Origin: Verrucomicrobiales bacterium
GTDB lineage: Bacteria > Verrucomicrobiota > Verrucomicrobiia > Verrucomicrobiales > DEV007
Direction of reading: 5' to 3'
Assembly: GCA_017991025.1 (NCBI GenBank)
Contig: JAGNMT010000001.1
Coordinates: 1 to 50,188, forward strand
Length of the DNA stretch: 50,188 nucleotides
In this document: positions 1,573-49,751 of the stretch, one piece after another
How the letters are laid out: the number at the start of each line of letters is the position of its first letter
Numbering within the stretch: the stretch's first letter is position 1
Position numbers and translations under genes: made by a program
Notes under the pieces: generated by a model
The model's input: the letters and a program-made list of their open reading frames with translations, nothing else
What the model was told of the DNA's origin: nothing
Database searches by the model: none

Positions 1573-2292
1573 TCACTCGCCCACTTTGAACCGCAGCGCC
1601 GCATGATCCGAGATCGGAGATTTGGACTTCTCCCCGGCGAGGTGGCGGTCTCCGATGCGGGTGAGGTATTCTACCTCGGTGACCACCACGCCGGGGGTGT
1701 GGACGACGTGGTCGATCTTGTAGCCTTTGCCGGAGTGGGAGAGGTAGCTCCAGTCGCCAGTGGGATTCGGGACTTGGTAGCCGGAGGCGAATGGAAAGGA
1801 GCACCGTATAGCACCCTCCTGCTTCGCCTTCACGAAGGGGTCGAAGTTGATGTCCCCGGCAAAGAGGATGGAGGGGTTCCTGACTGAATCCATGATCTGA
1901 CCCAACTCCGCCCAGTAGGCCTTGCGGTCGGCGGCCTTCTCGTAGGCCGGGGCACGCAAGCCGACCATCTCGAAGGGGAAATCCCTGAACTTGAGGTGGA
2001 GGAAGTTCGAGATCGCCGACCCGTCGAACTGCGGTGGTCGGAGGTCTCCGACGTCGAAGGCGTGCTTCGACGCGGCAAAGATCTGGTTGTGCCGTGCTGG
2101 CGTCGCCGAGACGGCCTGATGGCGAAAGCCAGCCTCCCGCATCGCCGCCTTGAAAGGTTCTCGGCTCGGGTCGTCCACGTATTCATTGAAGAGGACCGTC
2201 TCCGCTTCGAGGGACAGGATCACTTCGACGAGATCGTCAGGGATGGGACGGACCTTAATTTGGTGGGCGAGGTTCCAGGCAATGGTAATCAT
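1573..2292 (-). CDS. Endonuclease/exonuclease/phosphatase (EEP) family protein
   Basis: EEP motifs in order: IAWN, FNEY, AGDIN, IDH, C-terminal SDH. Confidence 0.85.
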   Translation of the reverse strand: MITIAWNLAHQIKVRPIPDDLVEVILSLEAETVLFNEYVDDPSREPFKAAMREAGFRHQAVSATPARHNQIFAASKHAFDVGDLRPPQFDGSAISNFLHLKFRDFPFEMVGLRAPAYEKAADRKAYWAELGQIMDSVRNPSILFAGDINFDPFVKAKQEGAIRCSFPFASGYQVPNPTGDWSYLSHSGKGYKIDHVVHTPGVVVTEVEYLTRIGDRHLAGEKSKSPISDHAALRFKVGE

Positions 2293-23855: not shown

Positions 23856-24671
23856 TCAACTCGCCATCTCGTCCTGCACATACCGTCTGAACTCCCCGAC
23901 TGCCGTGAAGCACCTGAAACCGGCCTGGCTCGCGAACCAGTCGAGGTTGAAGTGAAAGTCCGCCTTGGCCCAGTCCTTCAGTTTGGCCTTCATCGCGTCG
24001 CGTCCCTCGGGCCATTCGGCGCAGATCTTCGCGAGGGCGAGATCGCCTTTGGAGAGCTTGGTGCCGCCACTGTTGACCCGGTTGAAGATATCGACCACGA
24101 CATCCAGCGACTTGTCGGCACCCGTCACTTCCTCGATGTGAAGGTCGATGTCAGTGACGCCAAGAAGACGGCTGAGACGCGCCACGTAGTCGCCAACGCG
24201 GGTGACGTGGACGGGATCGGCGCTCAAGCGGGTAACAAACTCTCCGAGTCCGGCGGTGCCCTTCTTCATCAGTTCCGTCACATCGATCCAAAGCGAATCG
24301 TCCTTCATCTTCACCGGCTGGTAGAACTCGAAGCTCTCAGATTCCAGGTGGAAGCGGAGGCCGGTGAAGGCCTGCGCGTTGCCGTCGAAAAACTTCGGTG
24401 GTCTTCCGCGAACGACTCCGTAGAGTGATGTCATTCTTTGCTGTCCGTCGAGGAGCAACTTCACGACGCCGGCCGCGAGAACTCCATCACCCCGGTGGGT
24501 TGCGCTCTTGGATTCGGTCGCCCAGACGAGGAGACCGCCGACCGGGTGGCGACGATAGAGGGAATCGAAGAGACCACGGACCTGCTCCCGGTTCCAGACG
24601 TAGCCGCGCTGGAATTCTGGGAGGGCCATGTGGCCGCTGTCGATGTGGTCAAGGATGGTGGAGATCTTCAT
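23856..24671 (-). pseudogene. DUF262 (GmrS-like) gene, probably 3'-truncated
   Basis: LPEFQRGYVW, LLDGQQRMTSL, IFNRVNSGG.KL motifs; family-like sequence stops after FHFNLDW (~23940); no DUF1524/HNH part follows. Confidence 0.7.
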
Positions 24672-25042
24672 GAAAGGTCGATTGTTCGTCAGACTGGGGG
24701 GACCGCTGGCAGGTGGGTTTGTTTCGGAGGCAGGGAGCAATGGCGGGATTTTCCCGGGCCCGATGTTTGTGTCTCGTGTGGAGGGCCCACCGAGGGTTTA
24801 GCGGGAGACAAGAGATGGCGCAACGAAAATCCGTCTTCGCGGTCGCGGCAATGTGGCTCTCAATCACAGAGGAAAACTATTACAATAACTCAGGGGTGGG
24901 ACCGCCGTGGGGTCACACTGAGACGATTTTTGAAATGAGCCCTGGTGCTCTCTGGGGGCTGACGGCACCTGATTCAGGTGATTGAACCGAAACGATTGAC
25001 AAGGTGGGCTCTAACCTTCAACTAAGAGGGCCGCCGTGACTC

Positions 25043-32853: not shown

Positions 32854-34338
32854 ATGCGCAGCCTCTCCAAATCCAAGTTGATCGCCTTCCGCCAATGTCA
32901 AAAGAGACTTTGGCTGGAGATCCATCGACCGGAGCTCCGCGACGACTCTGGGTCCGAGGTGGTCTTCCGGATCGGAAACGAGGTCGGCGAGGTCGCCCGG
33001 AAGGTCTACGACCCGGATGGCACCGGCACGGTCATCGACATCGGCGATCTGGGCTACGCCGAGGCCTTCCGACGCAGCGCCCAGGTCCTGAAGACCGGAG
33101 AAGGTCCAATCTTCGAGGCTGGGTTCCAGATCGACGGAGCGCTGGCCTTCGCAGATGTGATGGTGCCAGTGGTGTCCTGCGGGGACCTGAGTTGGCGAAT
33201 GCTCGAGGTGAAGTCCACCACCGGAGTGAAGGACTACCACCGCGACGACCTCGCCATCCAGAACCATCTCGCAAGGAAGATGGGGGTGGCCATCGACTCC
33301 GTCGGGATCGCCCACATCGACAACAGATTCGTGTATCCCGGGGAAGGGGATTATCGGGGGCTTTTTCACGAGGTCGATCTCACCGAAGAGACGAGGTTCC
33401 GTGGAATCGAGGTGGACGAGTGGATCGAGGACGCTCAGGCGACCGCGGCCCTGCCGTCGGAGCCGGAGTTCGCGATGGGACCCCAGTGTTCCGATCCTTT
33501 CGACTGTCCGTTCGCCGCCTATTGTTCCCGCGACCAGCCGGTCGTGGAGTATCCGCTTTCGTCGCTCCCGAACTTCAGCGGCCGGAGACGAGAAGCGGTC
33601 GAAGCACTCGGGATCACCGACCTGCGCGAGGTGCCGGACGAGCACCTCACCGCCGCCCAACAGTGGGTCAAAGAGGTGACCATTTCCGGGGAGACTTGGT
33701 TCGATGCGAATGGTGCCGCTGCCTCACTTGCTCCCCATGGCTTTCCGGCCTGGTTCCTCGACTTCGAGACCGTCTCCCTGCCAGTGCCCATCTGGAAGGG
33801 GACTCGGCCCTACCAGCAGATCCCGTTTCAGTTCAGCCTGCACCGGGTCGGAGAAGACGGAACGCTGACCCACGAGGCCTTCCTCGATCTCGGGGGTGAC
33901 GATCCGTCAAGAGCCTTGGCCGAAGCGCTGATCGACAAGGCGGGAGGGACCGGCCCTGTATTTGCCTACAATGCGACGTTCGAGCGTATGGTCATCCATC
34001 AACTCGCCGCAAGATTCCCCGATCTCGCCGAGCTGCTCGTCTCCCTCGCGGCCCGGATCGTCGATCTCCTCCCCATCGCCAAGGCGCACTTCTATGCCCC
34101 GAGCCAACACGGCAAATGGGGTCTGAAATCGGTCCTGCCGGCCGCTTGTCCGGATCTTTCCTACGACACCCTCGACGGCGTCGCTGATGGCAATATGGCC
34201 GTGGAGGCCTACCGCGAGGCCATCGCCGCTGAGACGACGCTAGAGCGCCGAGCCGAGATTGAAAGGCAACTGCTCGCCTACTGCCACCTCGACACGCTGG
34301 CGATGGTGCGCTTGTGGGAATTGTTCCGGGGTGGGTGA
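32854..34338 (+). CDS. DUF2779-like protein (Cas4/RecB-like nuclease plus RNase H-fold exonuclease)
   Basis: LSKSK...QC.KRLWL, ADV...EVKS, C...DCPF..YC, LDFET, PYQQIPFQFS, YNATFE, YC.LD. Confidence 0.82.
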   Translation: MRSLSKSKLIAFRQCQKRLWLEIHRPELRDDSGSEVVFRIGNEVGEVARKVYDPDGTGTVIDIGDLGYAEAFRRSAQVLKTGEGPIFEAGFQIDGALAFADVMVPVVSCGDLSWRMLEVKSTTGVKDYHRDDLAIQNHLARKMGVAIDSVGIAHIDNRFVYPGEGDYRGLFHEVDLTEETRFRGIEVDEWIEDAQATAALPSEPEFAMGPQCSDPFDCPFAAYCSRDQPVVEYPLSSLPNFSGRRREAVEALGITDLREVPDEHLTAAQQWVKEVTISGETWFDANGAAASLAPHGFPAWFLDFETVSLPVPIWKGTRPYQQIPFQFSLHRVGEDGTLTHEAFLDLGGDDPSRALAEALIDKAGGTGPVFAYNATFERMVIHQLAARFPDLAELLVSLAARIVDLLPIAKAHFYAPSQHGKWGLKSVLPAACPDLSYDTLDGVADGNMAVEAYREAIAAETTLERRAEIERQLLAYCHLDTLAMVRLWELFRGG

Positions 34339-37800: not shown

Positions 37801-38568
37801 ATCGACGATGCGCCATGCCTTGGGGTGGAAGGAATCGGGTTTGGAGGGGAGTTTCGAGATTTCCGCCAAGCGGACTTCGAGCGAGCAGCTTTCGCCAATG
37901 TCATCGGCCAGCGACATCCACCCTATCAATCGCCTGAGGGCTTCGGCAGAAGTGATGTAGAGATAATCGCCGACGAGGATGCGAATGCTTGCCTCGGCCC
38001 GGAGGGCGGCGAAGATCGATTGTTGGATGAGGTCGAGGCCGGAGGGCTGGATGAAGGAGGCGAGGAGATCGATTTCCGCGGCGGCGGAAACGCGCTGGCC
38101 GATGCGTTTCCAGAGCGGCGCGGCGGGGTGGCCGGTCGTGAGAGTGAGCGCAGGGGACGCAGGGGATTCCGGATTCTTTCCCGTGAGATAATTCCCCTTG
38201 TCCGGGATGACATGGCGGACGCCGCCGCGAGGATCGGCCATGTCACCGAGATAGCGCGGGATGACGTGGATGTGGACGTGAGGGACTGTCTGGCCGGAGG
38301 CGGCACCGGAGTTGAAGCCGACGTTGTAACCGTCGGGTTTTGGATCAAGGTTTAGATCGAGGAGGTGTTTGACGTCTTTCACCAATGCCATCAGTGCGGA
38401 CTGTTCCTCGTCTGTTGCCTCGAACCATGTTTCAACGATGCGCCGGGTCGTGACGAGGACATGGCCCGGAGAAACGGGAAACCCATCGAAGATCGCGAAA
38501 GCCAAGGCATTCGAGCAGAGCCAATGGTCCGCCGAAACGGCGTGGAATGGTGACTCGTAATCGGTCAT
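34858..38568 (-). CDS. HIT + PLD nuclease + SF2 helicase + S24 peptidase-like fusion (SauUSI-like core)
   Basis: HIT HVHIHVIPR; PLD FHPKAW...GSSNLS; helicase ATGLGKT, DEVHH, LTATPER, QQLGRGLR; C-terminal VRGHSMEP...TLKKY...LLPLNPDY. Confidence 0.88.
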   Translation of the reverse strand: MTDYESPFHAVSADHWLCSNALAFAIFDGFPVSPGHVLVTTRRIVETWFEATDEEQSALMALVKDVKHLLDLNLDPKPDGYNVGFNSGAASGQTVPHVHIHVIPRYLGDMADPRGGVRHVIPDKGNYLTGKNPESPASPALTLTTGHPAAPLWKRIGQRVSAAAEIDLLASFIQPSGLDLIQQSIFAALRAEASIRILVGDYLYITSAEALRRLIGWMSLADDIGESCSLEVRLAEISKLPSKPDSFHPKAWRIVDSSGGLLVVGSSNLSKAALETGVEWNLIRQTTGSEPIDRELARAFTDLWHQATPLDESVVSRYAEHAKEAHRKFLPPESVDLPTILYLPRPWQRSALESLDLIRSNAYRRALVAVATGLGKTWLAAFDVLAVGKSLNRPPRVLIIAHRAEILIQAEATIRTAMQSEWEETRVTWYLGANSDMSGDLVVASVQKLTRPEGLAELDRQRFDYAVIDEVHHAQAPSYRRVMTRLNATFILGLTATPERTDGVDVASLFDDVLAWQATVGDGIAEGSLVPFHYLGLKDGVDFEQIPWRNGRFDPTALEEKLENSERMERLWTAWQTDPDARTLVFCCSRRHALYTRDWLRRRQVRAAAVFSGSGGDPRSDSLSDFIDGALQALCVVDLFNEGLDVPDVDRVVMLRPTESKVIFLQQLGRGLRAAENKLRLKVIDFVGNHRVFASRLTHLLSLGNHSATWTDLKKFLKGGTPDLPEGCLLDLEVEAKELMLRLVPNTGSAVVEAYRSMRDELGRRPSPSELFHHGYLPRTLAARFNSWFGFISEQDDLTENERLVFASFESWLTMLEGTNLNKSYKMVVLRVLLDRDALWDGMEIEKLAVACREFLLSHPTLRHDLPPTQQFPDPAKAPIQAWAKWWLEWPLSRWMDEQAGRRWFKREGDRFLAAFPCPENLRPDFETMTAELVDYRLAHYAKTRIEKPAELTAGRFVAKVSHSGGKPILRLPTVEELPGRPIGPTTATLPDGSQWVFKFVKIACNVASPLGSEENQILPLLRGWFGENAGAPGTNYQVAFTKSETGWTVEPVAVATPLRVVEASPETGEIEHRENRSLPGFVESPTGGDKFTRLVPVYSLEAAAGLWGPESTPEEIGWAEVGGTAIKPGMFIARVRGHSMEPKIKDGSWNLFRPCPAGSREGRIVLVQFNSMGDPENGGRFTLKKYHSAKTVSEDAWQHDRIELLPLNPDYDPIPVAAHEGPELVVVGEWVASMD

Positions 38569-38904
38569 GCCGCTTTTGCGCGCTCACGGCTCAATCCATG
38601 TCCTCGTATAAGGTTGTGGTCCGGGTTTTCGTCTTCCATGGATGGGTTTAGGCAGAAGCGTCAGGATTGTGAATCGTGGAGTTGCTGCTAAAGGAGATCA
38701 AGCCCAAACCGGTTCCCACCAGGGACAGCGGCGAGCATCTACAGCCGATCCACCAGGCGAAGGCATATCGGCGCACCGTAGACGAGTCGCACGAGAAGGA
38801 CGCAAGCCATTGCGCCTCCACACAAAGAATTCCCGTGCGATCCAGAAGTCGGACTTTCGTTGGCTACTCCTTGCGCTGAATCGCTCTCACCTCATCTTCC
38901 CCGC

Positions 38905-40377
38905 CTAGGCCTCCTTCAGACAAAATCCCGCAAACCCCTCCGCCAACGCCACCACCTCTTCCCGCTTCGCCAGAGCCTCAACCCATTCTACAGGGATTGC
39001 GCCCTCTCCGTGAATGAGCCCCGCCAACCCACCGGCGACGCAGCCCGTCGTGTCGGTATCGTCGCCAAGATTGACGGCATGGAGGACGGCGTCCGAGAAA
39101 TCGTCGTTGCGCGCGTTGACCCAGAGGGCGGCTTCGAGCGTGTCGATGACATGACCGCTGGAGCGGATCTCGTCTTCATCGCGGGTGAAGAGCCGGTCCG
39201 GGTGCAGGGCCTCGAAGCGGTGGCGCTCGGCGGGCGAGAAGGTCCAGCGATGATCGAGGATCTCCCAGGCGAAGGCCGTGGCCTCCTCGATCGTGCCGCC
39301 GTGCAGGAGGTCGCCGGCGACGAGGCAATAGAAGGCGCAGCAAAAGCGGGAGCGTTCGTGGGCGTGGGTGACGGCGGAGATCTCGGAGGCTTTGACTATG
39401 AGATCGGGATCATCGGCGTAGGCGAGGGCGATCGGAAGAATGCGCATGAGCGCCCCGTTGCCGTTGGAACTTTCCGAGGTGCCGCCGCATTCGAGCGGGG
39501 GAGTGCCGGAACGGAAGCGGGTCAGGGCCTCGCGGGTGGCGTTTCCGATGTCAAAGACGACGCCGTGCGCAGTGTGTCGGGCTTTGTCCATCCACAGGCC
39601 AAACTGGCGCATCACTGCGGCCGGGTCGTAGCCGCCGGATTCGATCAAACCCGTCATGGTCGCGAGGATCATGGAAGTGTCGTCGGACCAGGTCCCGGCG
39701 GGTTGATGGTGGGTGCCGTAGGCGCGCATCCCCGTGACCGGGTCCGCCTTCCGGGCGGAACGTCCCTGGAACTCGACCGGCACGCCGAGGGCATCACCGA
39801 TGGCGGCACCGAGGAGGGCGGCGCGGACGACGGAGGGAGTGACGGTGCCGGCGGGATTCCATTCGCGGACGTAGCGCCGTTGTTCGTCGGTCTCGGGGCT
39901 CTCTGAGAAGGCGGCTTTGGCGCAGGCCTGCCAGCGCGAGGAGAGGACCGCGAGGGACTCGTCGCCACGATGGCCGAAGAGGTCGTTGAGGACACAAGCG
40001 GCCACGGTGCCGGTGCGACCGCGTCCACCCCAGCAATGGAGATAAAGGGTGCGGCCCCGGTGTCGCTCGCGCCGGATAGTGCGGAGGATGTCGCGCATGT
40101 CCTTCGTCCGCTGCGGCACGGACATGTCGCGGATGGGATGGCGGAGAAAGGTGAGCTCCCCGGGATCGATGCCGAGCGAGACGGCGGTGGCCAAGGCGAT
40201 CTCGCGGTAGGGTTTCAGTTCGCCTTCCTCGGTGAGGTCGAGAAAGACGCGGACTCCGGCCGTGAGGATCGCGGTCATGCCCTCGTGATCCTCGAGGTCG
40301 TCAAAGTCGCGGGGGTATTCGCCGCAGAGGATGCGTCCAGGCTCGAGCCAGTAGCTGTTGAGGAAGGGTGGGGTCAT
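38905..40377 (-). CDS. Dual-specificity phosphatase fused to ADP-ribosylglycohydrolase (DraG-like)
   Basis: CX5R loop HCWGGRGRTG, PETDEQ; ARH motifs GDALG, WSDDT, GNGALMR, GDDTDT. Confidence 0.9.
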   Translation of the reverse strand: MTPPFLNSYWLEPGRILCGEYPRDFDDLEDHEGMTAILTAGVRVFLDLTEEGELKPYREIALATAVSLGIDPGELTFLRHPIRDMSVPQRTKDMRDILRTIRRERHRGRTLYLHCWGGRGRTGTVAACVLNDLFGHRGDESLAVLSSRWQACAKAAFSESPETDEQRRYVREWNPAGTVTPSVVRAALLGAAIGDALGVPVEFQGRSARKADPVTGMRAYGTHHQPAGTWSDDTSMILATMTGLIESGGYDPAAVMRQFGLWMDKARHTAHGVVFDIGNATREALTRFRSGTPPLECGGTSESSNGNGALMRILPIALAYADDPDLIVKASEISAVTHAHERSRFCCAFYCLVAGDLLHGGTIEEATAFAWEILDHRWTFSPAERHRFEALHPDRLFTRDEDEIRSSGHVIDTLEAALWVNARNDDFSDAVLHAVNLGDDTDTTGCVAGGLAGLIHGEGAIPVEWVEALAKREEVVALAEGFAGFCLKEA

Positions 40378-41267
40378 GCGGAGGGATCGCATCCGAAACG
40401 GTTCTGTGAACCGTTGGCAGCCGAAAGGAACTCTTGGAGGAGGGGCGTGAAGGCGGACTCGGGAGCTTTTTCAAATAGTTCCTCGAAGCTGAGGTGTTGC
40501 AGGGTGAACCGGTTTGTGAGGATATCGAGGAGGTGGTCATTCTCGGGATACTTCCAGTCGGAATGCGAGCGCTTGGGCATGCGCCGGTAGGAGCGTTGCC
40601 ATTCGCGCAGGAGGATCTCCGGGTTCTTGTATTCCTCGAGCTTGTAGTGATAGAGCCGGGATTTCGGCTCGGTGCCCACAAAGATTCGCGGGGTGACAAG
40701 AGTGACGGTGATCCGTTCCACACACTGCTTGTTGATCTGGAAGGTGACGGCATTCTCGATCACGCGGGAAAGCCGGTTGCGGTGTTGATCATGGGTGACG
40801 TTTTTGGAGATGTCGGAATACCACTTCATCTCACAGAAGGTGATGGACGAACCAAGCGTCGGGTCGTAGGCGATCCCTCCTTCCTTGGCGGGACGATCCG
40901 TTGTGTCCACCTTCACGGAGGGACGATCGGTGATCGCACCGATGGCGAGATCGACGTTCGTGTTGCCTTCCTTGCTCCGCGGCGGCATGGGCAGGGCCTC
41001 GAGCCGGATGGGATGCTGGGCCGACGGATCCACCGCGGTGCCGGAAAGGAGGGATTCGAGCTTTCGGATTCCGTCCCAGCCGGACGCCGCGTAGGAAATT
41101 CCAAGGAGAAACGTCCAGACGACCTCGTCGTAGAAATCGGGGCGGCCGGCCTCCAGTTGATCGTTGAGCCGTCGAACGAGGTGGCTCCAACGATCGTCCG
41201 TGATCCGGAAAAAGGTGCGAAGGTGTTTGGTTTCCTTTTCAATCCAGCTTTGCATGAGATGATCCAT
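40374..41267 (-). CDS. Hypothetical protein, PD-(D/E)xK-like
   Basis: EGNTNVDLAIG...FCEMKWYSD...RNRLSR motif; overlaps the WYL gene end and is ATGA-coupled to the downstream gene. Confidence 0.65.
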   Translation of the reverse strand: MDHLMQSWIEKETKHLRTFFRITDDRWSHLVRRLNDQLEAGRPDFYDEVVWTFLLGISYAASGWDGIRKLESLLSGTAVDPSAQHPIRLEALPMPPRSKEGNTNVDLAIGAITDRPSVKVDTTDRPAKEGGIAYDPTLGSSITFCEMKWYSDISKNVTHDQHRNRLSRVIENAVTFQINKQCVERITVTLVTPRIFVGTEPKSRLYHYKLEEYKNPEILLREWQRSYRRMPKRSHSDWKYPENDHLLDILTNRFTLQHLSFEELFEKAPESAFTPLLQEFLSAANGSQNRFGCDPSA

Positions 41268-42300
41268 GATAGAGTTTCTTCGTCGTGGTGAGTGCTTCGA
41301 GGATTTCGGTCCGCAGCTCCGGCGGTGACAACACCTCCACCTGCGGCCCCCAACTCAGGATCCAGCGCCGGATCTCTTCGAAGCTGCTGAGTTCGAGAGT
41401 CATGACGAGCTCCTCGGCCTGCTTTCCCTTCCACTCGATCTGCTGGCTGGGATGCCAGCGACGCTCCGAGACAAGGCGGGCGGCCCATCCGGTGAAGCTG
41501 AGCCGTATGCGACTTCGTTTGCCTCGTTCGCCTGGACTATGCCAGACTCCGAAGCTGCCGCCAAGGTGGTCGTTCAGGGAAAAGTCGGCGGGACGGAGGA
41601 AGCGGACTTTCAGGGGGCGTGCCCTGCGGATGCGCTGAAGGGCAAAGGTTCGCCGGGCCTTGCGGTCGGGATCGAAGCCGATGACGTACCAGCCGCCGTC
41701 GAACTCGGTGAGGTGGTAGGGCTGGAGGCGACGTGGTTCCCATTCCTCGCCGTCGATCTTGCGGTAGTCGAACTTCAGCTCGCAGGTCTCAAGGATGGCC
41801 CTAGCCACCTTTTCGAAAAGGACGACATCCGCGGGAACGACCCCGGAGTCCCGCGCCGAGAACACTTCGTCGAGATCCGACCAGTGGAACGACACCTCGC
41901 CGACAAGGGTGGAGGAAAGGCGACGGAAACTTTCCCGCAGAGTCTCCTCGAGCGGGGATCCGTGGATAGGCGTGATCGCCTTCCGGGCGAGGAAGAGGGC
42001 GACGACGTCCCCCACCGACACCTTGAGCAGGGGGAAGTCCTGCACGGGCCGCGCATAGTGGTAGCCGTGGCGGAGGCTGTCATATTCGATGGGCAAGCCG
42101 AGGTCCTTCTGCATGAAGGTGACGTCCCGCTGGATCGTCTTCGGGATCACCCCGATCTGTTCGGCGAGGGTGCGGCAGTTCGGGAAACACCCGCTTTGGA
42201 TGGCCTGGTGAATCTCGAAGATCCGCTCGATCGGCCTCCGGGTTTCACCATAACGTTTCTCAGAGAGAGGTGGTTTCCGGGCGGAGGCTCGTTTCTTCAT
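41239..42300 (-). CDS. HTH-WYL-WCX transcriptional regulator (PafC/BrxR-like architecture)
   Basis: wHTH LAEQIGV.PKTIQRDV; WYL region RRLQPYHL...WYVIG...RTFALQRI; C-terminal WILSWG..VEVLSPPELR. Confidence 0.92.
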   Translation of the reverse strand: MKKRASARKPPLSEKRYGETRRPIERIFEIHQAIQSGCFPNCRTLAEQIGVIPKTIQRDVTFMQKDLGLPIEYDSLRHGYHYARPVQDFPLLKVSVGDVVALFLARKAITPIHGSPLEETLRESFRRLSSTLVGEVSFHWSDLDEVFSARDSGVVPADVVLFEKVARAILETCELKFDYRKIDGEEWEPRRLQPYHLTEFDGGWYVIGFDPDRKARRTFALQRIRRARPLKVRFLRPADFSLNDHLGGSFGVWHSPGERGKRSRIRLSFTGWAARLVSERRWHPSQQIEWKGKQAEELVMTLELSSFEEIRRWILSWGPQVEVLSPPELRTEILEALTTTKKLYHGSSHAKLD

Positions 42301-42377
42301 CGGTGGGATTCTAGCACCGATCGCGGCACTTTTTTCACTTTTTGAAAGGGGAGGGTCCACGGCAGTCCCACCCCCTG

Positions 42378-42386
42378 TGGTAAATT
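42378..42386 (+). promoter_or_regulatory. Extended -10 element, probable leaderless promoter of the vWA gene
   Basis: TGg-TAAATT ends 6 nt before the ATG at 42393; no Shine-Dalgarno. Confidence 0.5.
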
Positions 42387-42392
42387 GTCCCC

Positions 42393-43094
42393 ATGAGCAA
42401 GAAACCGAACCCAGCCAAACCGACCCAGAAACCCACCACCGAGATCGCCTTCATCCTCGACCGTTCCGGGTCGATGCAGGGGCACGTCGCCGCCGCCATC
42501 GGTGGCTTCAACGAATTCCTCGCCGACCAGCAGCAGGTCGAGGGCCTCGCCCGTCTCACCCTCGTGCTCTTCGACGATGTCTTCGAGACTCCCTTCGACA
42601 ACATCCCGATTTGCGAGGTCGTCCCCCTCGACACCCGCACTTACACGACGCGGAACACCACCGCCCTCCTCGATGCCATCGGACTGACGATCGAATCCTT
42701 CGAGAGACGCATCAAGGCACTGCCAAAGACCTCGCGCCCCTCGCAGGTGATCTTCGCGATCTTCACCGACGGCCTCGAGAACGCCTCGAGCCGCTACACC
42801 TGGAAGGACGTCGCCGCGAAGATCAAGGAGCGGCAGGAGAAGGACGGGTGGCAGTTCCTCTTCCTCGGTGCCAACCAGGATGCCATCGCCACGGCCGCAC
42901 AGATGAACATCCACGCCCACAATGCCGCCACGGCATCCTATTCGGACAAGGGGGTGCAGGGTTCGGCTCGGGCCTTCAGCCGGAAGGCCACGGCGCTGCG
43001 CGAGTCGCTCATGGCCGAGGGACCGTCACAGCTCAATCAGGACCTCAATCGCTCCATGGACCAGATCTTGCGGGAGGAGGAGGGGAGGGAATGA
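42393..43094 (+). CDS. von Willebrand factor A domain protein
   Basis: MIDAS DRSGSM, TALLDAIG, IFTDGLENAS, WQFLFLGAN. Confidence 0.9.
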   Translation: MSKKPNPAKPTQKPTTEIAFILDRSGSMQGHVAAAIGGFNEFLADQQQVEGLARLTLVLFDDVFETPFDNIPICEVVPLDTRTYTTRNTTALLDAIGLTIESFERRIKALPKTSRPSQVIFAIFTDGLENASSRYTWKDVAAKIKERQEKDGWQFLFLGANQDAIATAAQMNIHAHNAATASYSDKGVQGSARAFSRKATALRESLMAEGPSQLNQDLNRSMDQILREEEGRE

Positions 43095-43216
43095 CCCGAA
43101 CGGAATTCGGGGATTGCCCTACGGGGAGCTTCGCGGTATATCAGGCGCGTGATCCGATTTGAAGAGTCCGAATCGCACTCAAGCGGACCATTCGAGACGT
43201 TCTCATTAAGAATCCT

Positions 43217-44401
43217 ATGAGTCTATCCGATCACTCAGCACCCGGCAGTAACGCCGGATTCAGCTTTCAATTTGAACGTGCGCTTCAGTATCTCGCTACG
43301 GCGACGGCGGGCAGTCTGGTCGGCGTGGAAACAGATGATGATGTTGCAGTTCGCCGTGCTGATGGGACGCGCTTGTTGGAGCAAGACAAACACTCCATAA
43401 GGGAGAACGCCAAGCCATTCGGAGATCGGTCGAAAGATCTGTGGAACACACTGAAGATTTGGGTCGAAGCGATAGACTCGGGAGAAGTTCTTCCTGAGAA
43501 AACGCTTTTTTTGATGGTTACTAACAAGGAACTTCCCCAATGTATCGCCCATAAAATTGGAGCTGCGAAGAGCCAGAAAGAGGTCGATGCATGCATTACC
43601 GAACTAGAAACGGCTGCGATCTCCCCGCCTGAGGGCATTCAAACTATTGTTGCCCGCGTCTTGCGAAGTGAATCCCGCACCAATCTACAGAAGTTAATTA
43701 AACGCTGCCGGGTGGCCGATTCTACTGCGGAAACTGCAGGTGACGAGCTGCGTGTAAAGACGATTAGCCACCTACAGTTGCCGGAATGGTGTGCGTGCCA
43801 TGCGAATTCCATTTTTGATGAACTCTTGGGCTGGATGCACCGGACTGCATTGACGAGTTGGCAGCAGAATGAGCCTGCTTGGATCAAGCGGGATCATTTC
43901 GTAAACCAGATCCACGCGATCATTGATCTTCGGAAGCGACGAATCATTCGCGAGCGCGCCGAGCATCTCATTCTGGTGAGCGACGACAAGGTTGGTGAGG
44001 TGAAGGGGAGCAATTTCGTGAAGCAGATTCATCTAATATCGGATGACGACAGCGTCGCCGATACTGCCATTCGAGAATTCATCTGTTGTAACATCGAAAA
44101 GGCACGCCTATCAACCGAAGGAAATATCACCGACGACGATTGGTTGACCTTTGAATCCACCTTATTAACCCGCTGGTCCAAGATCCGCGCTCGAATCCTC
44201 CGAATGCGGAATAACGAAGCGGAGAGAGACGTTGGTTTCGAAGTTTTCACCGACACTACGGAAGCACACTGTGAGAAACTCGCAGGCAGCGATACTGAGC
44301 AAATCTATCTGACGTCGGGGTCTTACCACCGTTTGGCGGAACACCTTCAGGTCGGATGGCATCCGCGATTTGAAGAACTAATGCGGCAACCGAGCGAATG
44401 A
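43217..44401 (+). CDS. lmuA: Lamassu effector LmuA (Cap4-like nuclease plus ABC-3C C-terminal domain)
   Basis: AGFSFQF, ETDDDV...EQDKHS nuclease motif, DLWNTL..W, C-terminal GSYH.LA...VGWHP. Confidence 0.82.
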   Translation: MSLSDHSAPGSNAGFSFQFERALQYLATATAGSLVGVETDDDVAVRRADGTRLLEQDKHSIRENAKPFGDRSKDLWNTLKIWVEAIDSGEVLPEKTLFLMVTNKELPQCIAHKIGAAKSQKEVDACITELETAAISPPEGIQTIVARVLRSESRTNLQKLIKRCRVADSTAETAGDELRVKTISHLQLPEWCACHANSIFDELLGWMHRTALTSWQQNEPAWIKRDHFVNQIHAIIDLRKRRIIRERAEHLILVSDDKVGEVKGSNFVKQIHLISDDDSVADTAIREFICCNIEKARLSTEGNITDDDWLTFESTLLTRWSKIRARILRMRNNEAERDVGFEVFTDTTEAHCEKLAGSDTEQIYLTSGSYHRLAEHLQVGWHPRFEELMRQPSE

Positions 44402-44889
44402 TGATGGATATACTTTTTGAGCAGAAGGTGATCCAAAACACCGGCCTTGCGGCGGAGGCAATTTGGCAGGCGGTGCAAGAATCTTATGAATCTAAGGGCC
44501 GCTCCGAAGGCGTTTCGTTCCCTCTGGTGTTTCTTGTCCTTCCCCTCACATTTCATAAACGAACAGCCACGAGTCTTGCGACGAAGGCTCAACCTGGCGC
44601 GCTTTTTAAAGCACTTGGCGATGATCGTGAAATCACGGTCGGACTTCAGGAGCGGATGCAGGCGATGTCGGACCGCACCTTCCAAGCGCTATCGATCGGG
44701 TTCCAGTCCGGACTGATTCTGCTCGATCACGATCGTCAACGTCAAATCATTCCCGGCAGAAAAACGACACCAGTTTCTCATGTTACGGAAGACGTAAAAT
44801 TGGTTTTGAACGCGGCTAAACGTGTTGGTCAAGCCTTTGCAGAAATGACTGCCGTCCAACTTTCGACACATTTGAACATCCGATTCTGA
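44398..44889 (+). CDS. lmuC: Lamassu LmuC (ABC three-component middle component)
   Basis: 163 aa, N..LAA, FLVLPLTFH motif; coupled between lmuA and lmuB. Confidence 0.8.
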   Translation: MMMDILFEQKVIQNTGLAAEAIWQAVQESYESKGRSEGVSFPLVFLVLPLTFHKRTATSLATKAQPGALFKALGDDREITVGLQERMQAMSDRTFQALSIGFQSGLILLDHDRQRQIIPGRKTTPVSHVTEDVKLVLNAAKRVGQAFAEMTAVQLSTHLNIRF

Positions 44890-46881
44890 ATGAAACTGGC
44901 GATACTGAAAATCATTCTTTGGCCGAAGGACCCGAACCTCGATCCACGCATTATCGAATTTTGTCCTGGTCGGATCAACGTAATCACTGGTGAAAGTGCG
45001 ACAGGGAAATCCAGTCTGACGTGGATTATCGACTACTGCCTCGGCAGTGACAAATGCTCGATACCAGTGGGATTGATCCGAGATGTCACGGGTTGGTTCG
45101 GGCTACATCTCCAGCTTGCAAACACCGAAATGATTGTTGCCCGCCGAAACCCGGAGGATCAACAGACCACCTCTGATCTATTCTGGGACGAGGGGCTGGA
45201 ACTCAACGTTCCCCCGATCGTGCGAAAAAACGCACGCGTTGAGGATTTGAAGAATCGATTCAATCAAATCTCCCATCTGCCCGCCCTCGACTTTTCTCCC
45301 GAGGAAGGCAGCGGGTTCGGAGGGCGTCCGAGCTGTCGGGATATGGCAGCATTTAACTTTCAGCCGCAACACATAGTTGCCAATCCATACACGTTCTTTT
45401 TCAAAGCGGACACATCGGAGCACCGCGAGAAGCTGCGAATAATTTTCCCGCTCGTGCTCGGTGCCATTGACGCTGGAACTTTAGCCAAGCAGCGCGAATT
45501 AAGAGACACCGAGCGAGAACATGATCGCCTGCAACGGGAGCTTACCGCCCGCCTCACAGCGGCCCGCGCTTGGGAGGCCGAAGTGGAAGCGTATTACTTG
45601 CAGGCACGAACGCTCGGGCTTTTACCGGATTCTCCAGTTCCCCAGTCAGGGTGGACGTTGGACAGATACATTATGGAACTGCAGAAAGTCCCGGGCTCAG
45701 TTCGGACAATGGACCTTCCCGATATTCAGGAAGGAACGGGGGAGGCTGCGGTTGCAGAGTTGACTCGCCTGATCAACGATGAGGACGAGTTGGGACAGGA
45801 GATCGGCTCAGTCCGGAGGCGATTAGGCAAGATGGATCAGTTGTCATCATCGGTCGATGATTATGGTGCGGCGCTGACTGCTCAGGAGGACCGCCTGCAA
45901 AGTGTCGGATGGTTCCAGAGTAAGCTGCAAACCCCTCACGAATGTCCAGTGTGCTCCGCCGTGCATGTGGATGGGAATCCGAGGCTGGTGGAATTGCAGA
46001 CGCTGGCCACCGAGTTGAAGACTCTTACTGAGAAGGTACATGAAGCGCCCGCAAAGTTGGATCAAGAGGTGGCGACGTTGCGACAGGAGCTTCGAACTCT
46101 TGAAGGCGCCATAAACAAAGCGCGACAAAAGAGAAAGTATTTGGAGAATCAATCAAACGAACATGCGGCTCAACGTCAGCGCGTCCGACAGATTTATCTT
46201 TTTGTTGGTCGTGTTGAACAGGCGTTGGAGAATGTCACGGCGAGCAGCAATGTGGATCAGCTTCGCGAGAAAGTAAAAATACTCGCGAGCAAGATCACAG
46301 AGCTGAAACACGATCTTGATCCTGCTGTTCAAAAAAACCGTCTGAATGCAGCGATTGACTCTGTCTCGGCCACGATTTCGGATTACGCAAGGTTATTGCG
46401 TCTAGAACATGCGAATGAAAATGTGCGACTAAATGTCCGTGAGTTGACGCTTCAGTTTAGTCCGCTGTCCGGCCGCACAGACTTCCTTTGGGAAGTCGGG
46501 AGTGGTCAGAACTGGGTTGGCTATCACATTGCCGGATTGCTTGCGCTGCATGAGCACTTTCTTCGCTCAAATCAGAATCCCGTGCCGAGCTTTCTTGTGA
46601 TCGACCAACCGAGCCAGGTTTATTTCCCGGAGGCCTGGCCAGCGTTAGATCGAACTGCGGAAACAGATTCGATGGTCGACAGGTCCGCTGACATTGAGGG
46701 AGTCCGGAGAATTTTTCGCGCTCTTTCACATTTTAGGGGGAAAGTCTCGGAGCGTTTTCAGATCATTGTCACTGAACATGCCGGTTCAATCACCTGGGAG
46801 GGGATTCCGAATGTACACATCGTGGGGAATTGGCGCGAGGATCACGACGAGTTCTTGATTCCGAAAGCGTGGAGGAAATAA
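44890..46881 (+). CDS. lmuB: Lamassu LmuB, SMC/Rad50-like ABC ATPase (DUF3732-like)
   Basis: Walker A ITGESATGKS, Q-loop FQPQ, coiled coils with CPVC zinc hook, signature GSGQNW, Walker B VIDQPSQ, H-loop TEH. Confidence 0.9.
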   Translation: MKLAILKIILWPKDPNLDPRIIEFCPGRINVITGESATGKSSLTWIIDYCLGSDKCSIPVGLIRDVTGWFGLHLQLANTEMIVARRNPEDQQTTSDLFWDEGLELNVPPIVRKNARVEDLKNRFNQISHLPALDFSPEEGSGFGGRPSCRDMAAFNFQPQHIVANPYTFFFKADTSEHREKLRIIFPLVLGAIDAGTLAKQRELRDTEREHDRLQRELTARLTAARAWEAEVEAYYLQARTLGLLPDSPVPQSGWTLDRYIMELQKVPGSVRTMDLPDIQEGTGEAAVAELTRLINDEDELGQEIGSVRRRLGKMDQLSSSVDDYGAALTAQEDRLQSVGWFQSKLQTPHECPVCSAVHVDGNPRLVELQTLATELKTLTEKVHEAPAKLDQEVATLRQELRTLEGAINKARQKRKYLENQSNEHAAQRQRVRQIYLFVGRVEQALENVTASSNVDQLREKVKILASKITELKHDLDPAVQKNRLNAAIDSVSATISDYARLLRLEHANENVRLNVRELTLQFSPLSGRTDFLWEVGSGQNWVGYHIAGLLALHEHFLRSNQNPVPSFLVIDQPSQVYFPEAWPALDRTAETDSMVDRSADIEGVRRIFRALSHFRGKVSERFQIIVTEHAGSITWEGIPNVHIVGNWREDHDEFLIPKAWRK

Positions 46882-46986
46882 GCGGAGGGAGTTCAGCGGA
46901 GGCCAGGTTCCGATAGGGCATCGGGGCCACGATGTAGAAGGAACCGCAGTTGAATTCGTAACGGCTGAGGCGACGCTCTTCGTGCG

Positions 46987-48078
46987 TCAGAACCCGCCTT
47001 CTGCACCTTTTTCTCCGCAACAAAAGCGAACCTTCATTCCGCTCCCGCAGGGGCACTCGGAGTAAGCCCAAATTGAGTCATGACTGTTGGCGATCATGTG
47101 TCGGATAACCTTTTGTGTCAAATGCATCAGAGGTTTCTTGAACTCCTCGAACTCTTCGAACAAAACATTCAGTCGAACCAAGCTCGCCGCGACAATCTCG
47201 AATACCTTACCCATGGGCTGTGCGCATTCTTTCAAAAATCCCGCCGGAGCACCGGGTCCCAACTCCTTTTCGACCCATCGAAATCCATACCTTTCGTCGG
47301 TAACCGGCGTTGCTGAGCGGCTGAATGCGAGCATCAACCCAACATTTGGATGACAGAATTCACAAAGGATCTCATAAACCGCTCGTGCCCCCTGCACCTT
47401 TTTCTCAAGGAGATCGATGCCATTGAGCACCTGTGGAGCCGAGAGATCAGTTCCCATTTCGTCTGGCCTGTATTCTACGTCTTTACGCGACAGCTTTGCC
47501 GGAAGGTCTTCAAGGGAAATCTTTTCCCAGTGAATCCGCGTCCCTCCGAGGGCAAGGGCAATATCTTCACGGATTGCAATCAGTAAGTTCGATGCTTCGC
47601 TGAAGGGCTCGGGTATTCCCGGAAACACCAACTTCTTTCGTATGGATTCAAAATGCCCCACATGTTCCAGAATCCCCCGAAAACTCGTCATGAGCACGAG
47701 AAGATTCTCAGATCGGATCGAGTAGACTGAGGCATCCAGCAAACTAGCCACTCCCATTCCCTTGACCTCGACGAATTCAGGAAGCATTCGCGAAGCACTC
47801 CCATTCTGGTAAAGAAGAAACGCCTTCTCGGCCTGAGAAAAAGTCACCGTCTTCTTGAGTTCTCCCCCGCTGATGTAGCCGTTGGAAACCAGACTCTTGC
47901 AGAAGTCTTTCATCTGATTGCCGCTTACATTGCGGTGGATGTAGCCGTCGGAAACACGTCTCGAAAGGGTCTCGATTGATTCCGCAATCTGTTTCAAAGC
48001 AGCCACTACCGGCGGGCCCATTCCCGTCAACCATTCAGCATCTGTCAGCAGCGCGCGTATTTTCTCTTCTTCGCTCAT
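46987..48078 (-). CDS. Hypothetical helical protein with C-terminal SEC-C motif
   Basis: CPCGSG.K...CCG at the C-terminus; R..LE and Y..LCEF.HPN motifs; start chosen at MSEEEK (frame open to 48156). Confidence 0.7.
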   Translation of the reverse strand: MSEEEKIRALLTDAEWLTGMGPPVVAALKQIAESIETLSRRVSDGYIHRNVSGNQMKDFCKSLVSNGYISGGELKKTVTFSQAEKAFLLYQNGSASRMLPEFVEVKGMGVASLLDASVYSIRSENLLVLMTSFRGILEHVGHFESIRKKLVFPGIPEPFSEASNLLIAIREDIALALGGTRIHWEKISLEDLPAKLSRKDVEYRPDEMGTDLSAPQVLNGIDLLEKKVQGARAVYEILCEFCHPNVGLMLAFSRSATPVTDERYGFRWVEKELGPGAPAGFLKECAQPMGKVFEIVAASLVRLNVLFEEFEEFKKPLMHLTQKVIRHMIANSHDSIWAYSECPCGSGMKVRFCCGEKGAEGGF

Positions 48079-49396: not shown

Positions 49397-49751
49397 GAGG
49401 TAGGGAACAGGTGGATGCCGGGATCACTTCCTTTGCAAGGAATCTTCGAGATACCCCTCGACGAAGGGATCGTTGCTGTCAGCGATATGTTCCGCCCGGG
49501 CCACCCATTCCCCGGTCGCGGTCCCGTCGATTCCGTCCTTCACCACCCGTGTCCGACATTCCGCGATGAATTCCCTCGGACAGTTCGTCACCCCCATCTG
49601 TACTCCCTCACAAATCCTCCCTCTGTTCATGGCCAATGCGCGCCCCTTATGGCACTCGCGGCGACCTGGCGCTCCGCGGCGGCGACATCCACCTTTTCGA
49701 TTTCCGCCGACTGGACGTCCTGAGATTCGGGGCCTGCGGCCATGGGATGAA

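Follow-up and report, generated by a model that had tools for sequence, protein, structure and literature searches.

Iyer, Burroughs, Anantharaman and Aravind predicted in 2022 a group of systems centred on an ADP-ribosylglycohydrolase (ARG-centred systems), in which the enzyme is accompanied by a WYL or Nudix transcription factor, a fused or adjacent cysteine phosphatase, a von Willebrand factor A (vWA) or other chaperone and a variable restriction endonuclease (REase); the main text proposes that these systems undo phage ADP-ribosylation under a repressor (PMC9503650). Other WYL proteins have been described as activators. According to the passages of these reports that treat regulation, PafBC of mycobacteria acts at the motif tGTCgg(N10)tA(N3)T, read by R46/R50 (PMC8635444), SiwR, also mycobacterial, activates adjacent genes from a site at -26 (PMC10693628), Caulobacter DriD is a homodimeric activator that also binds its own promoter and reads its site with R37/R41 (PMC10853764), and DdaA of the Moraxellaceae, whose motif precedes promoters of restriction-modification (RM), CRISPR-Cas and Zorya systems, sits some 50 bp before the start site and also governs recA and the core repair genes (PMC12392091). 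Here we analyse a 50,188-nucleotide stretch of a Verrucomicrobiales genome (the window), in which positions 38905 to 43094 carry a module of four genes, for a WYL transcription factor, a predicted PD-(D/E)xK-type nuclease, a fusion of a cysteine phosphatase (DSP) with an ADP-ribosylglycohydrolase (ARH), and a vWA protein. By its sequence the four-gene set fits the ARG-centred template, and as a gene set it had already been predicted (PMC9503650).

We propose, with a probability that we put at roughly 0.55, that this is the Verrucomicrobiales version of the predicted ARH-centred module, and that its WYL protein is a ligand-gated activator that binds a newly recognised promoter box and thereby switches on the vWA gene and other box-led defence genes. 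No description of the box or of a Verrucomicrobia WYL regulon, and no experimental test of ARG-centred systems, was found in the literature searched, which did not take in most subscription papers or, for the ARG-centred systems, supplement S4-S6 of the 2022 paper; relative to that literature the box and its proposed defence regulon are new.

Layout of the module

The WYL gene (41239..42300, minus strand; ATG at 42300, stop at 41239) is overlapped at its stop by the nuclease open reading frame (ORF; 40374..41267, minus strand), whose own stop is overlapped, by ATGA, by the DSP-ARH gene (38905..40377, or to 40392 with a longer start, minus strand). The vWA gene (42393..43094) is divergent on the plus strand across an intergenic gap of 92 bp (42301-42392), and 122 bp separate its stop from the start of lmuA. 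An earlier note, made from the letters of the window alone, had described these gene identities, overlaps and the divergent gap, and all are confirmed. The interval 38500-47000 is found at a word share of at least 0.94 in 18 DNA sequencing runs, of which 15 carry a flag as possible source, and over 38921-43097, nearly the limits given in the earlier note, identity with a metagenome relative (L337) is 88%. Since the stretch is shared among DNA runs and the L337 identity coincides with the module limits, the sequences indicate that the module is a real unit that is inherited together. Its closest named homologues are from Verrucomicrobiales. RNA runs yielded only scraps, mostly of relatives' sequence.

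A one-directional promoter box

The vWA genes are preceded by a one-directional box, T-N3-CC-N6-TGTCCYACCCC, which is followed by a weak -10 element (nAnnnT) and lacks a -35 element. In the window it occupies 42352..42386 on the plus strand, with the core GTCC at 42365-42368, 28 nt before the vWA ATG, and the -10 TAAATT at 42381-42386. The core is present in 20 of 25 vWA upstream regions, and in 18 of these 20 its GTCC lies 27-28 nt before the ATG, a distance that fits a leaderless vWA transcript; the vWA mRNA is thus likely leaderless. When the 4.1-Mb genome is ranked with a matrix trained without the window's site, that site comes first (30.7 bits with the full model, 18.4 with the box alone). 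In 16 Mb of Markov null sequence the full model found one match at 22 bits or more and none at 25 or more, and the box alone none at 20 or more; the reversed genome gave one 23-bit match to the full model.

The box was first seen by eye and then anchored with a regular expression, so it is the held-out tests that carry weight. Among 23 strong held-out boxes selected blind to the -10, nAnnnT stands at the fixed spacing in 20; the offsets used as controls give a mean of 2.2. In none of the 23 do matches to TTGACA exceed three of six. These promoters were all missed by a consensus promoter scan that requires a -35. A de novo Gibbs search of the vWA upstream regions locked onto start codons, and a loose box-only pattern proved to be largely background (in 60 genomes it matched 150 times, and the controls 90 times); 40 regions around such loose matches were fetched, picked by eye from the 23-nt match alone. 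BrxR and CapW are repressors that act on inverted repeats. The 92-bp gap holds no convincing inverted repeat and the box is asymmetric, so an operator of the BrxR/CapW type was not found there.

A second box in the window (24882..24915, minus strand; core GTCC from 24902, -10 TATTGT; 24.8 bits with the box alone) lies 17 kb from the first, between a GmrSD-N gene, at which it points, and zorA, to which it stands back to back. The GmrSD-N gene (23856-24671, minus strand) encodes the N-terminal domain alone (271 aa) and looks truncated beside a low-GC SIR2 block. Before zorA, at about 24996-25018 on the plus strand, a perfect TTGACA overlaps the inverted repeat AAGGT-N8-ACCTT, and the two may be a separate Zorya promoter and operator. 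The third box in the window's genome (C274:3272) precedes an internally deleted vWA remnant of 41 aa; kinase-like, HNH-like and PLD-helicase genes, so labelled by reading the sequence, are nearby. A 24.7-bit box at C52:6012 stands before a putative PIN-type toxin-antitoxin pair, likewise labelled by sequence reading.

The WYL regulator

The regulator is a helix-turn-helix (HTH)-WYL-WCX transcription factor of 353 aa (Pfam WYL E=3e-19, WCX E=4e-15). Its HTH helix 3 carries K54-T-I-Q-R58-D and its WYL motif is R217-T-F-A-L-Q-R223; the recognition-helix motif KT[IV]QRD is present in 57 of 66 homologous sequences. The nearest solved chains are 7p5x/9fnd (E=5e-13) and PafBC 6sj9 (E=1e-11), followed by WYL-domain chains such as 7tzv, and structures of BrxR or CapW are not among its eight PDB matches.

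On its own side of the divergent gap the WYL gene has an extended -10, TG-C-TAGAAT (42308..42316, minus strand), 7 nt before the ATG, which is likely a leaderless promoter of the WYL-nuclease-DSP-ARH operon; many close relatives have TATACT, TATAGT or TAGAAT at the same position. This element is better than the -10 on the vWA side and comes without a forward box. A reversed box lies 35-37 nt before the WYL ATG, over the operon's -35 zone, in four relatives (L033, L047, L061 and L063). The better extended -10, the lack of a forward box and these reversed boxes together suggest basal expression of the WYL operon with self-damping.

A second WYL clade (44-50% identity; L073-L082, L197) lies, at most of its loci, in a conserved region adjoining a PspA/IM30 gene and has no box upstream; a weak box lies downstream of the WYL gene in two genomes. 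In four further loci (L256, L257, L258 and L301) the box drives a WYL-only protein of 97-113 aa, divergent from a full regulator in three of them; this small protein could be a ligand-binding modulator.

Distribution of the box and the genes behind it

The exact pattern of box plus -10 occurs at 101 sites (nine of them training sites) in 65 of 250 genomes of the order, against six for a reversed control pattern. The WYL subfamily of the window is found in 60 of the 65 box-positive genomes, and the box in only 5 of the 149 genomes without the subfamily; within one genus the box is present in 25 of 34 genomes with the subfamily and in 2 of 20 without it. These counts come from related genomes that are not independent, and kinship inflates the association. 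A comparison of coordinates puts 39 of the 101 sites immediately before a WYL gene, on the opposite strand, and in the fetched loci such WYL-abutting sites mostly point at a vWA gene.

Twenty-two strong boxes (L189-L214) lead into defence operons in nine cases, repair-like genes in three (SbcCD-like, AddB-like and helicase genes), vWA genes in three and other genes or genes of no assigned function in seven. The nine defence operons are type I RM (three), Cas12b, Cas3, DISARM, BREX (by way of a vWA remnant), PDC-S26 and PDC-S02. As a control, all 70 genes of 20 weak-match loci were searched at an E-value stricter than that used for the box loci, and PADLOC matched in four loci, to generic domains only. 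A further set of boxes leads into genes for Cas3, AddAB-like, RecC-like, SNF2 and ARPP-1 proteins and a YbjN-type chaperone, and in four loci a phosphatase gene follows the vWA gene; ARPP-1, the YbjN-type chaperone and the phosphatase are all parts named in the 2022 prediction (PMC9503650). A conserved ORF of 52-57 aa without a Pfam match begins 32-37 nt after strong boxes in six loci (L279, L327, L328, L330, L331 and L332).

Conservation of the gene neighbourhood

Close WYL homologues were defined by at least 60% identity, and their loci were de-duplicated and counted only where enough flank was present. Under these rules the divergent vWA gene is present at 15 of 24 close loci, and downstream of the regulator DSP is found at 12, ARH at 10 and the nuclease at 5 of 22. 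All four genes occur together at 4 of 19 close loci, so that the genes do co-occur elsewhere, as the earlier note would have them do. A vWA gene also lies beside 27 of 45 more distant WYL genes, a biased count, most of these loci having been fetched because they have a box. WYL and vWA make up the core of the module, and ARH is cargo with a limited lineage range.

In one relative (L345:16387-18645) the four-gene module has beside it another WYL gene, a true REase-ARP and a PTP-SAK that stands alone, and its nuclease and DSP-ARH genes are separated by an inserted Kinase-PolyVal gene. ARH operons led by NrtR are found in the same bacterial order (L040, L042, L043, L046, L048 and L087) with, variously, DSP, NADAR, Macro, KptA, NAPRTase, isochorismatase and microbial PARG genes; these are a Nudix-regulated form of the same system.

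A fixed system with Lamassu or with the HIT-helicase was rejected, as no fetched locus has a Lamassu homologue and none has the helicase adjoining the module. Nor does lmuA or the HIT-helicase gene have a box of its own (best scores -4.4 and -3.7 bits). The earlier suggestion that the regulator also controls its neighbours thus survives in a wider form, through the conserved box before many defence operons, and fails for a fixed link to these two.

Proposed mechanism and alternatives

In the mechanism that we favour, a WYL dimer would read the GTC core of the box with K54 and R58, as PafB does with R46/R50 and DriD with R37/R41. A ligand arising from damage or infection, most likely nucleic-acid fragments, would bind, and the ligand-bound protein would help sigma-70 RNA polymerase to start where the -10 is poor and the -35 absent. 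In the window the vWA promoter would fire, Lamassu would follow by read-through, and the GmrSD remnant would respond too. The WYL-nuclease-DSP-ARH operon, transcribed from its own extended -10, would probably be basal and auto-damped and would form a second line, an eraser of ADP-ribose and phosphate marks together with an exchangeable nuclease; the vWA protein would serve as a peptide-binding adaptor, a role borrowed from the 2022 prediction. Activation of the box promoters is suggested by the resemblance of K54/R58 and TGTCCY(N10-11)nAnnnT to their counterparts in PafBC, SiwR and DriD, and the promoter geometry leans toward activation. The idea of an inducible eraser or counter-attack system, put forward in the earlier note, gains from the intact motifs and from its publication as a prediction (PMC9503650). 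Its inducibility is doubtful, because the box points at the vWA gene while the operon that encodes the eraser has its own extended -10 without a forward box.

A number of observations weigh against an activator acting at the box. TG occurs at the extended -10 position of the box promoters with a frequency of about 0.7, and these promoters might work unaided, with the box as an operator. The window's own site misses the exact pattern (no matches in G000, its genome) and reaches 18.4 bits for the box alone; an exact match is absent from 41 of 101 WYL-positive genomes; and many box-led genes have no assigned function or one outside defence, for example those for RCC1-repeat proteins. No box was found upstream of recA in G000, the one genome searched for it (best score 2.0 bits). 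Most members of the same genus have the pspA-linked WYL clade, with a near-identical helix, and some box-bearing genomes show that clade alone, so that either paralogue may be the one that acts. In the ligand pair F-R-x-x-R the first arginine is alanine here (F219-A-L-Q-R223), as in nearly all homologues, and the R204A-R207A double mutant of SiwR is reported to lose activation (PMC10693628), so the ligand may differ from single-stranded DNA (ssDNA). Finally, DSP or ARH lies downstream at 0 of 45 more distant WYL loci, which places the eraser outside the wider regulator unit. A bolder form of the activator proposal, which we offer tentatively, has the WYL protein devoted to immunity. The signal of infection that it senses would then not be plain ssDNA and might be fragments bearing ADP-ribose that the module's ARH and phosphatase release; it would turn on RM, CRISPR-Cas, DISARM, BREX and Lamassu in the manner of PafBC, and the vWA box promoter would be a landing pad that brings newly gained defence systems under its control.

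The regulator might instead be a repressor that sits on the box and blocks both divergent extended -10 promoters until ADP-ribose or a nucleotide fragment releases it, so that the eraser operon and the vWA gene are induced together. We think this rather doubtful. The main text of the 2022 paper calls such factors negative regulators and finds NrtR as an alternative to them, although the same text contains neither of the words 'operator' and 'activator' and, in its passages on them, no promoter analysis (PMC9503650). Repression is likewise implied by the earlier note, NrtR-led ARH operons do occur in this order, and the altered arginine pair could fit a ligand that is not DNA. The box does overlie the -35 zone of a TG-extended promoter, and the reversed boxes of four relatives lie 35-37 nt before the WYL ATG, but it is non-palindromic, keeps a single orientation and phase to a poor -10, and the closest solved relatives of the protein are activators of the PafBC type.

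In another reading, which we hold improbable, the box is genuine but serves a different factor, for instance an alternative sigma factor or the WYL paralogue linked to pspA, and the four genes are merely island cargo that uses it. Sigma promoters are also two-part motifs with fixed spacing, five box-positive genomes showed no WYL protein of this subfamily, and most members of the genus have the paralogue. Against this, box and WYL subfamily go together both between genera and inside them, a WYL gene abuts 39 of the 101 sites, and the ten pspA-linked copies in the tree (a quick version, without bootstrap) lack a reversed box upstream. We regard as equally unlikely a regulon concerned mainly with nucleic-acid damage clean-up, in which ARH and the phosphatase would strip broken DNA or RNA ends of ADP-ribose and phosphate and the defence genes would be late recruits. 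The EEP, HAD_SAK_2, AddAB-like, RecC-like and SbcCD-like genes found in the operons or behind boxes would suit such a role, as would the membership of the phosphatase in the Swiss Army Knife family (Pfam) and the description of PafBC, DriD and SiwR, in abstracts, as damage regulators. Yet recA has no box in this genome, defence operons outnumber repair-like ones nine to three among the 22 boxes, and the module lies in a defence island with rapid turnover of cargo. The activator proposal accordingly remains the one that we prefer.

Proteins of the module

The DSP-ARH fusion (490 aa) matches PTP-SAK (E=5e-14) and ADP_ribosyl_GH (E=1e-77) in Pfam. Its phosphatase motif HCx5R is intact (H114-C-x5-R121), and the ARH metal-binding motifs GDALG, SDDT, NGALMR, TH and DTDT are all kept. 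Its best PDB matches are Lmo0067 (E=5e-62), 2cwc, 6dre and the DraG-type 2woc. No ADP-ribosyltransferase or sirtuin is encoded among the module genes or their direct neighbours, and a SIR2_2 gene is 18 kb off in a separate operon. In one relative an Uzume-like (UzuA) gene, another nuclease-type cargo, directly follows DSP-ARH (L032:7394-8212).

The nuclease-like protein has 297 aa, or 293 aa from the ATG at 41255, the start used in the database gene call and in homologues. In the 293-aa numbering its putative catalytic residues are D43-E44, D102 and E142-x-K144; D102, E142 and K144 are invariant and D43/E44 at least 90% conserved among 41 sequences, and alignment and model place the E..D..ExK set on helix 1, strand 2 and strand 3. 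No Pfam family was matched. With the AlphaFold model (pLDDT 87.8) Foldseek gave no match at E of 0.001 or below; the top structural matches are Can2, the 2vld repair endonuclease, Card1 and type II REases, all at low Z (best Z 5.3, root-mean-square deviation 4.5, 144 residues aligned), and nearly all of the 50 matches listed are, going in part by their titles, nucleases of the PD-(D/E)xK fold. Together these features point to a PD-(D/E)xK-type nuclease of an unnamed family. Identity with REase-ARP (PF22558) was rejected: none of 41 members matches that profile, confirmed to be in the Pfam copy searched, at E of 1 or below, and hhalign against a true member gave a probability of 0.1. A role as dedicated partner of ARH was also rejected, since WYL, DSP and ARH adjoin the gene in just 3 of 66 family loci. 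The nuclease is present in 2 of 59 relatives and is best described as variable cargo, and its family, which clusters at 50% into 537 representatives, adds another candidate effector.

The vWA protein is a stand-alone domain of 233 aa and the conserved divergent partner of the WYL protein. Its Pfam match falls under the cut-off (E=0.003), and its model matches vWA folds (best Foldseek E=7e-8). The metal-ion-dependent adhesion site (MIDAS) residues D23, S25, S27, T90 and D126 are intact and invariant among 21 homologues, and the protein matches phrog_7371 among the PHROG families (E=7e-53). A single-protein query of viral contigs found no close relative of it.

Genomic setting

Lamassu (lmuA-lmuC-lmuB, 43217..46881, plus strand; PADLOC) is a recently acquired neighbour outside the conserved module. 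In L337 the end of the vWA gene runs on into sequence that matches 49421-49531 of the window, and G+C at third codon positions agrees (0.74-0.86 in the module, 0.51-0.57 in Lamassu), so the Lamassu block is likely an insertion. The gap between vWA and lmuA shows no terminator-like site and no unusual fold (z 0.87); given the former, Lamassu is perhaps transcribed by read-through from the vWA gene. Elsewhere a gene cluster with a Tubulin_2 domain recurs behind the vWA gene or the box (L063, L065, L213 and L342).

A DUF2779 gene (32854..34338, plus strand) is convergent on the module. It recurs as a companion of the module and in relatives is preceded by a box, and L337 has a similar box beside it, but there is none before the copy in the window. 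The module itself lies within a defence island (53-46881) anchored at tRNA-Thr, which also holds an integrase, McrBC, two HsdM with HsdS and HsdR, PDC-S54, an XRE-M78 regulator, HNH, Mrr, Zorya I, a HIT-PLD-helicase-S24 fusion, Lamassu and a SIR2_2 gene with a 988-aa low-GC partner. An EEP-family gene near the island's start (1573-2292, minus strand) is 66-71% identical to genes of five relatives that share the strand of the WYL gene and lie 1-5 kb downstream of its start; in the window it is 36 kb from the WYL gene, as though island cargo had been inserted between them.

Comparison with known systems

With the ARG-centred systems the module shares an ARG with its metal site and TH motif, a WYL factor, a rhodanese-type cysteine phosphatase fused to the ARG, a gene for a vWA protein (the predicted chaperone), a variable gene of REase fold and the lack of a coupled ADP-ribosyltransferase. 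It differs in that the lineages which the text of that prediction names do not include Verrucomicrobia, in that the nuclease here is not REase-ARP, and in that the paper's text assumes repression and gives no DNA site, whereas here WYL and vWA form the core and ARH is cargo limited to some lineages. The ARH has metal-binding motifs in common with Tri1, DraG and Lmo0067. It falls below the NCBIfam cut-offs for Tri1 and DraG (184 against 490; 127 against 337), is fused to a phosphatase and belongs to a module without a partner transferase.

Among WYL regulators the likeness is greatest to PafBC and SiwR, with which it shares the HTH-WYL-WCX architecture, a GTC core near -26 joined to a -10 without a -35, and a basic HTH pair four residues apart. 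It differs from PafBC in being a single gene rather than a PafB/PafC heterodimer and in a spacer that is usually one base longer, and from both in its additional upstream and C-rich conservation, in the alanine at the first WYL arginine and in targets that are largely defence genes. The DriD site is described as the pseudo-palindrome CGxC(N7)GxCG, whereas the box here is one-directional. DdaA resembles it in having a defence regulon, but the box here lies at about -29 to -24, with starts taken from the ATG; and while PafBC, DriD and DdaA are all described as controlling recA, recA here, in the one genome, has no box. BrxR and CapW are, like this protein, WYL regulators placed inside defence islands, without a counterpart here of their inverted repeat. 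The text of the 2022 prediction lacked a DNA site and a direction of control, and the box supplies both in a form open to direct test. If the regulator acts as proposed, the Verrucomicrobiales would be the second lineage, after the Moraxellaceae, in which one WYL protein coordinates many unrelated defence systems, and would do so with a PafBC-like promoter geometry and, it seems, with recA left out, in a phylum where the regulation of genes has received little study.

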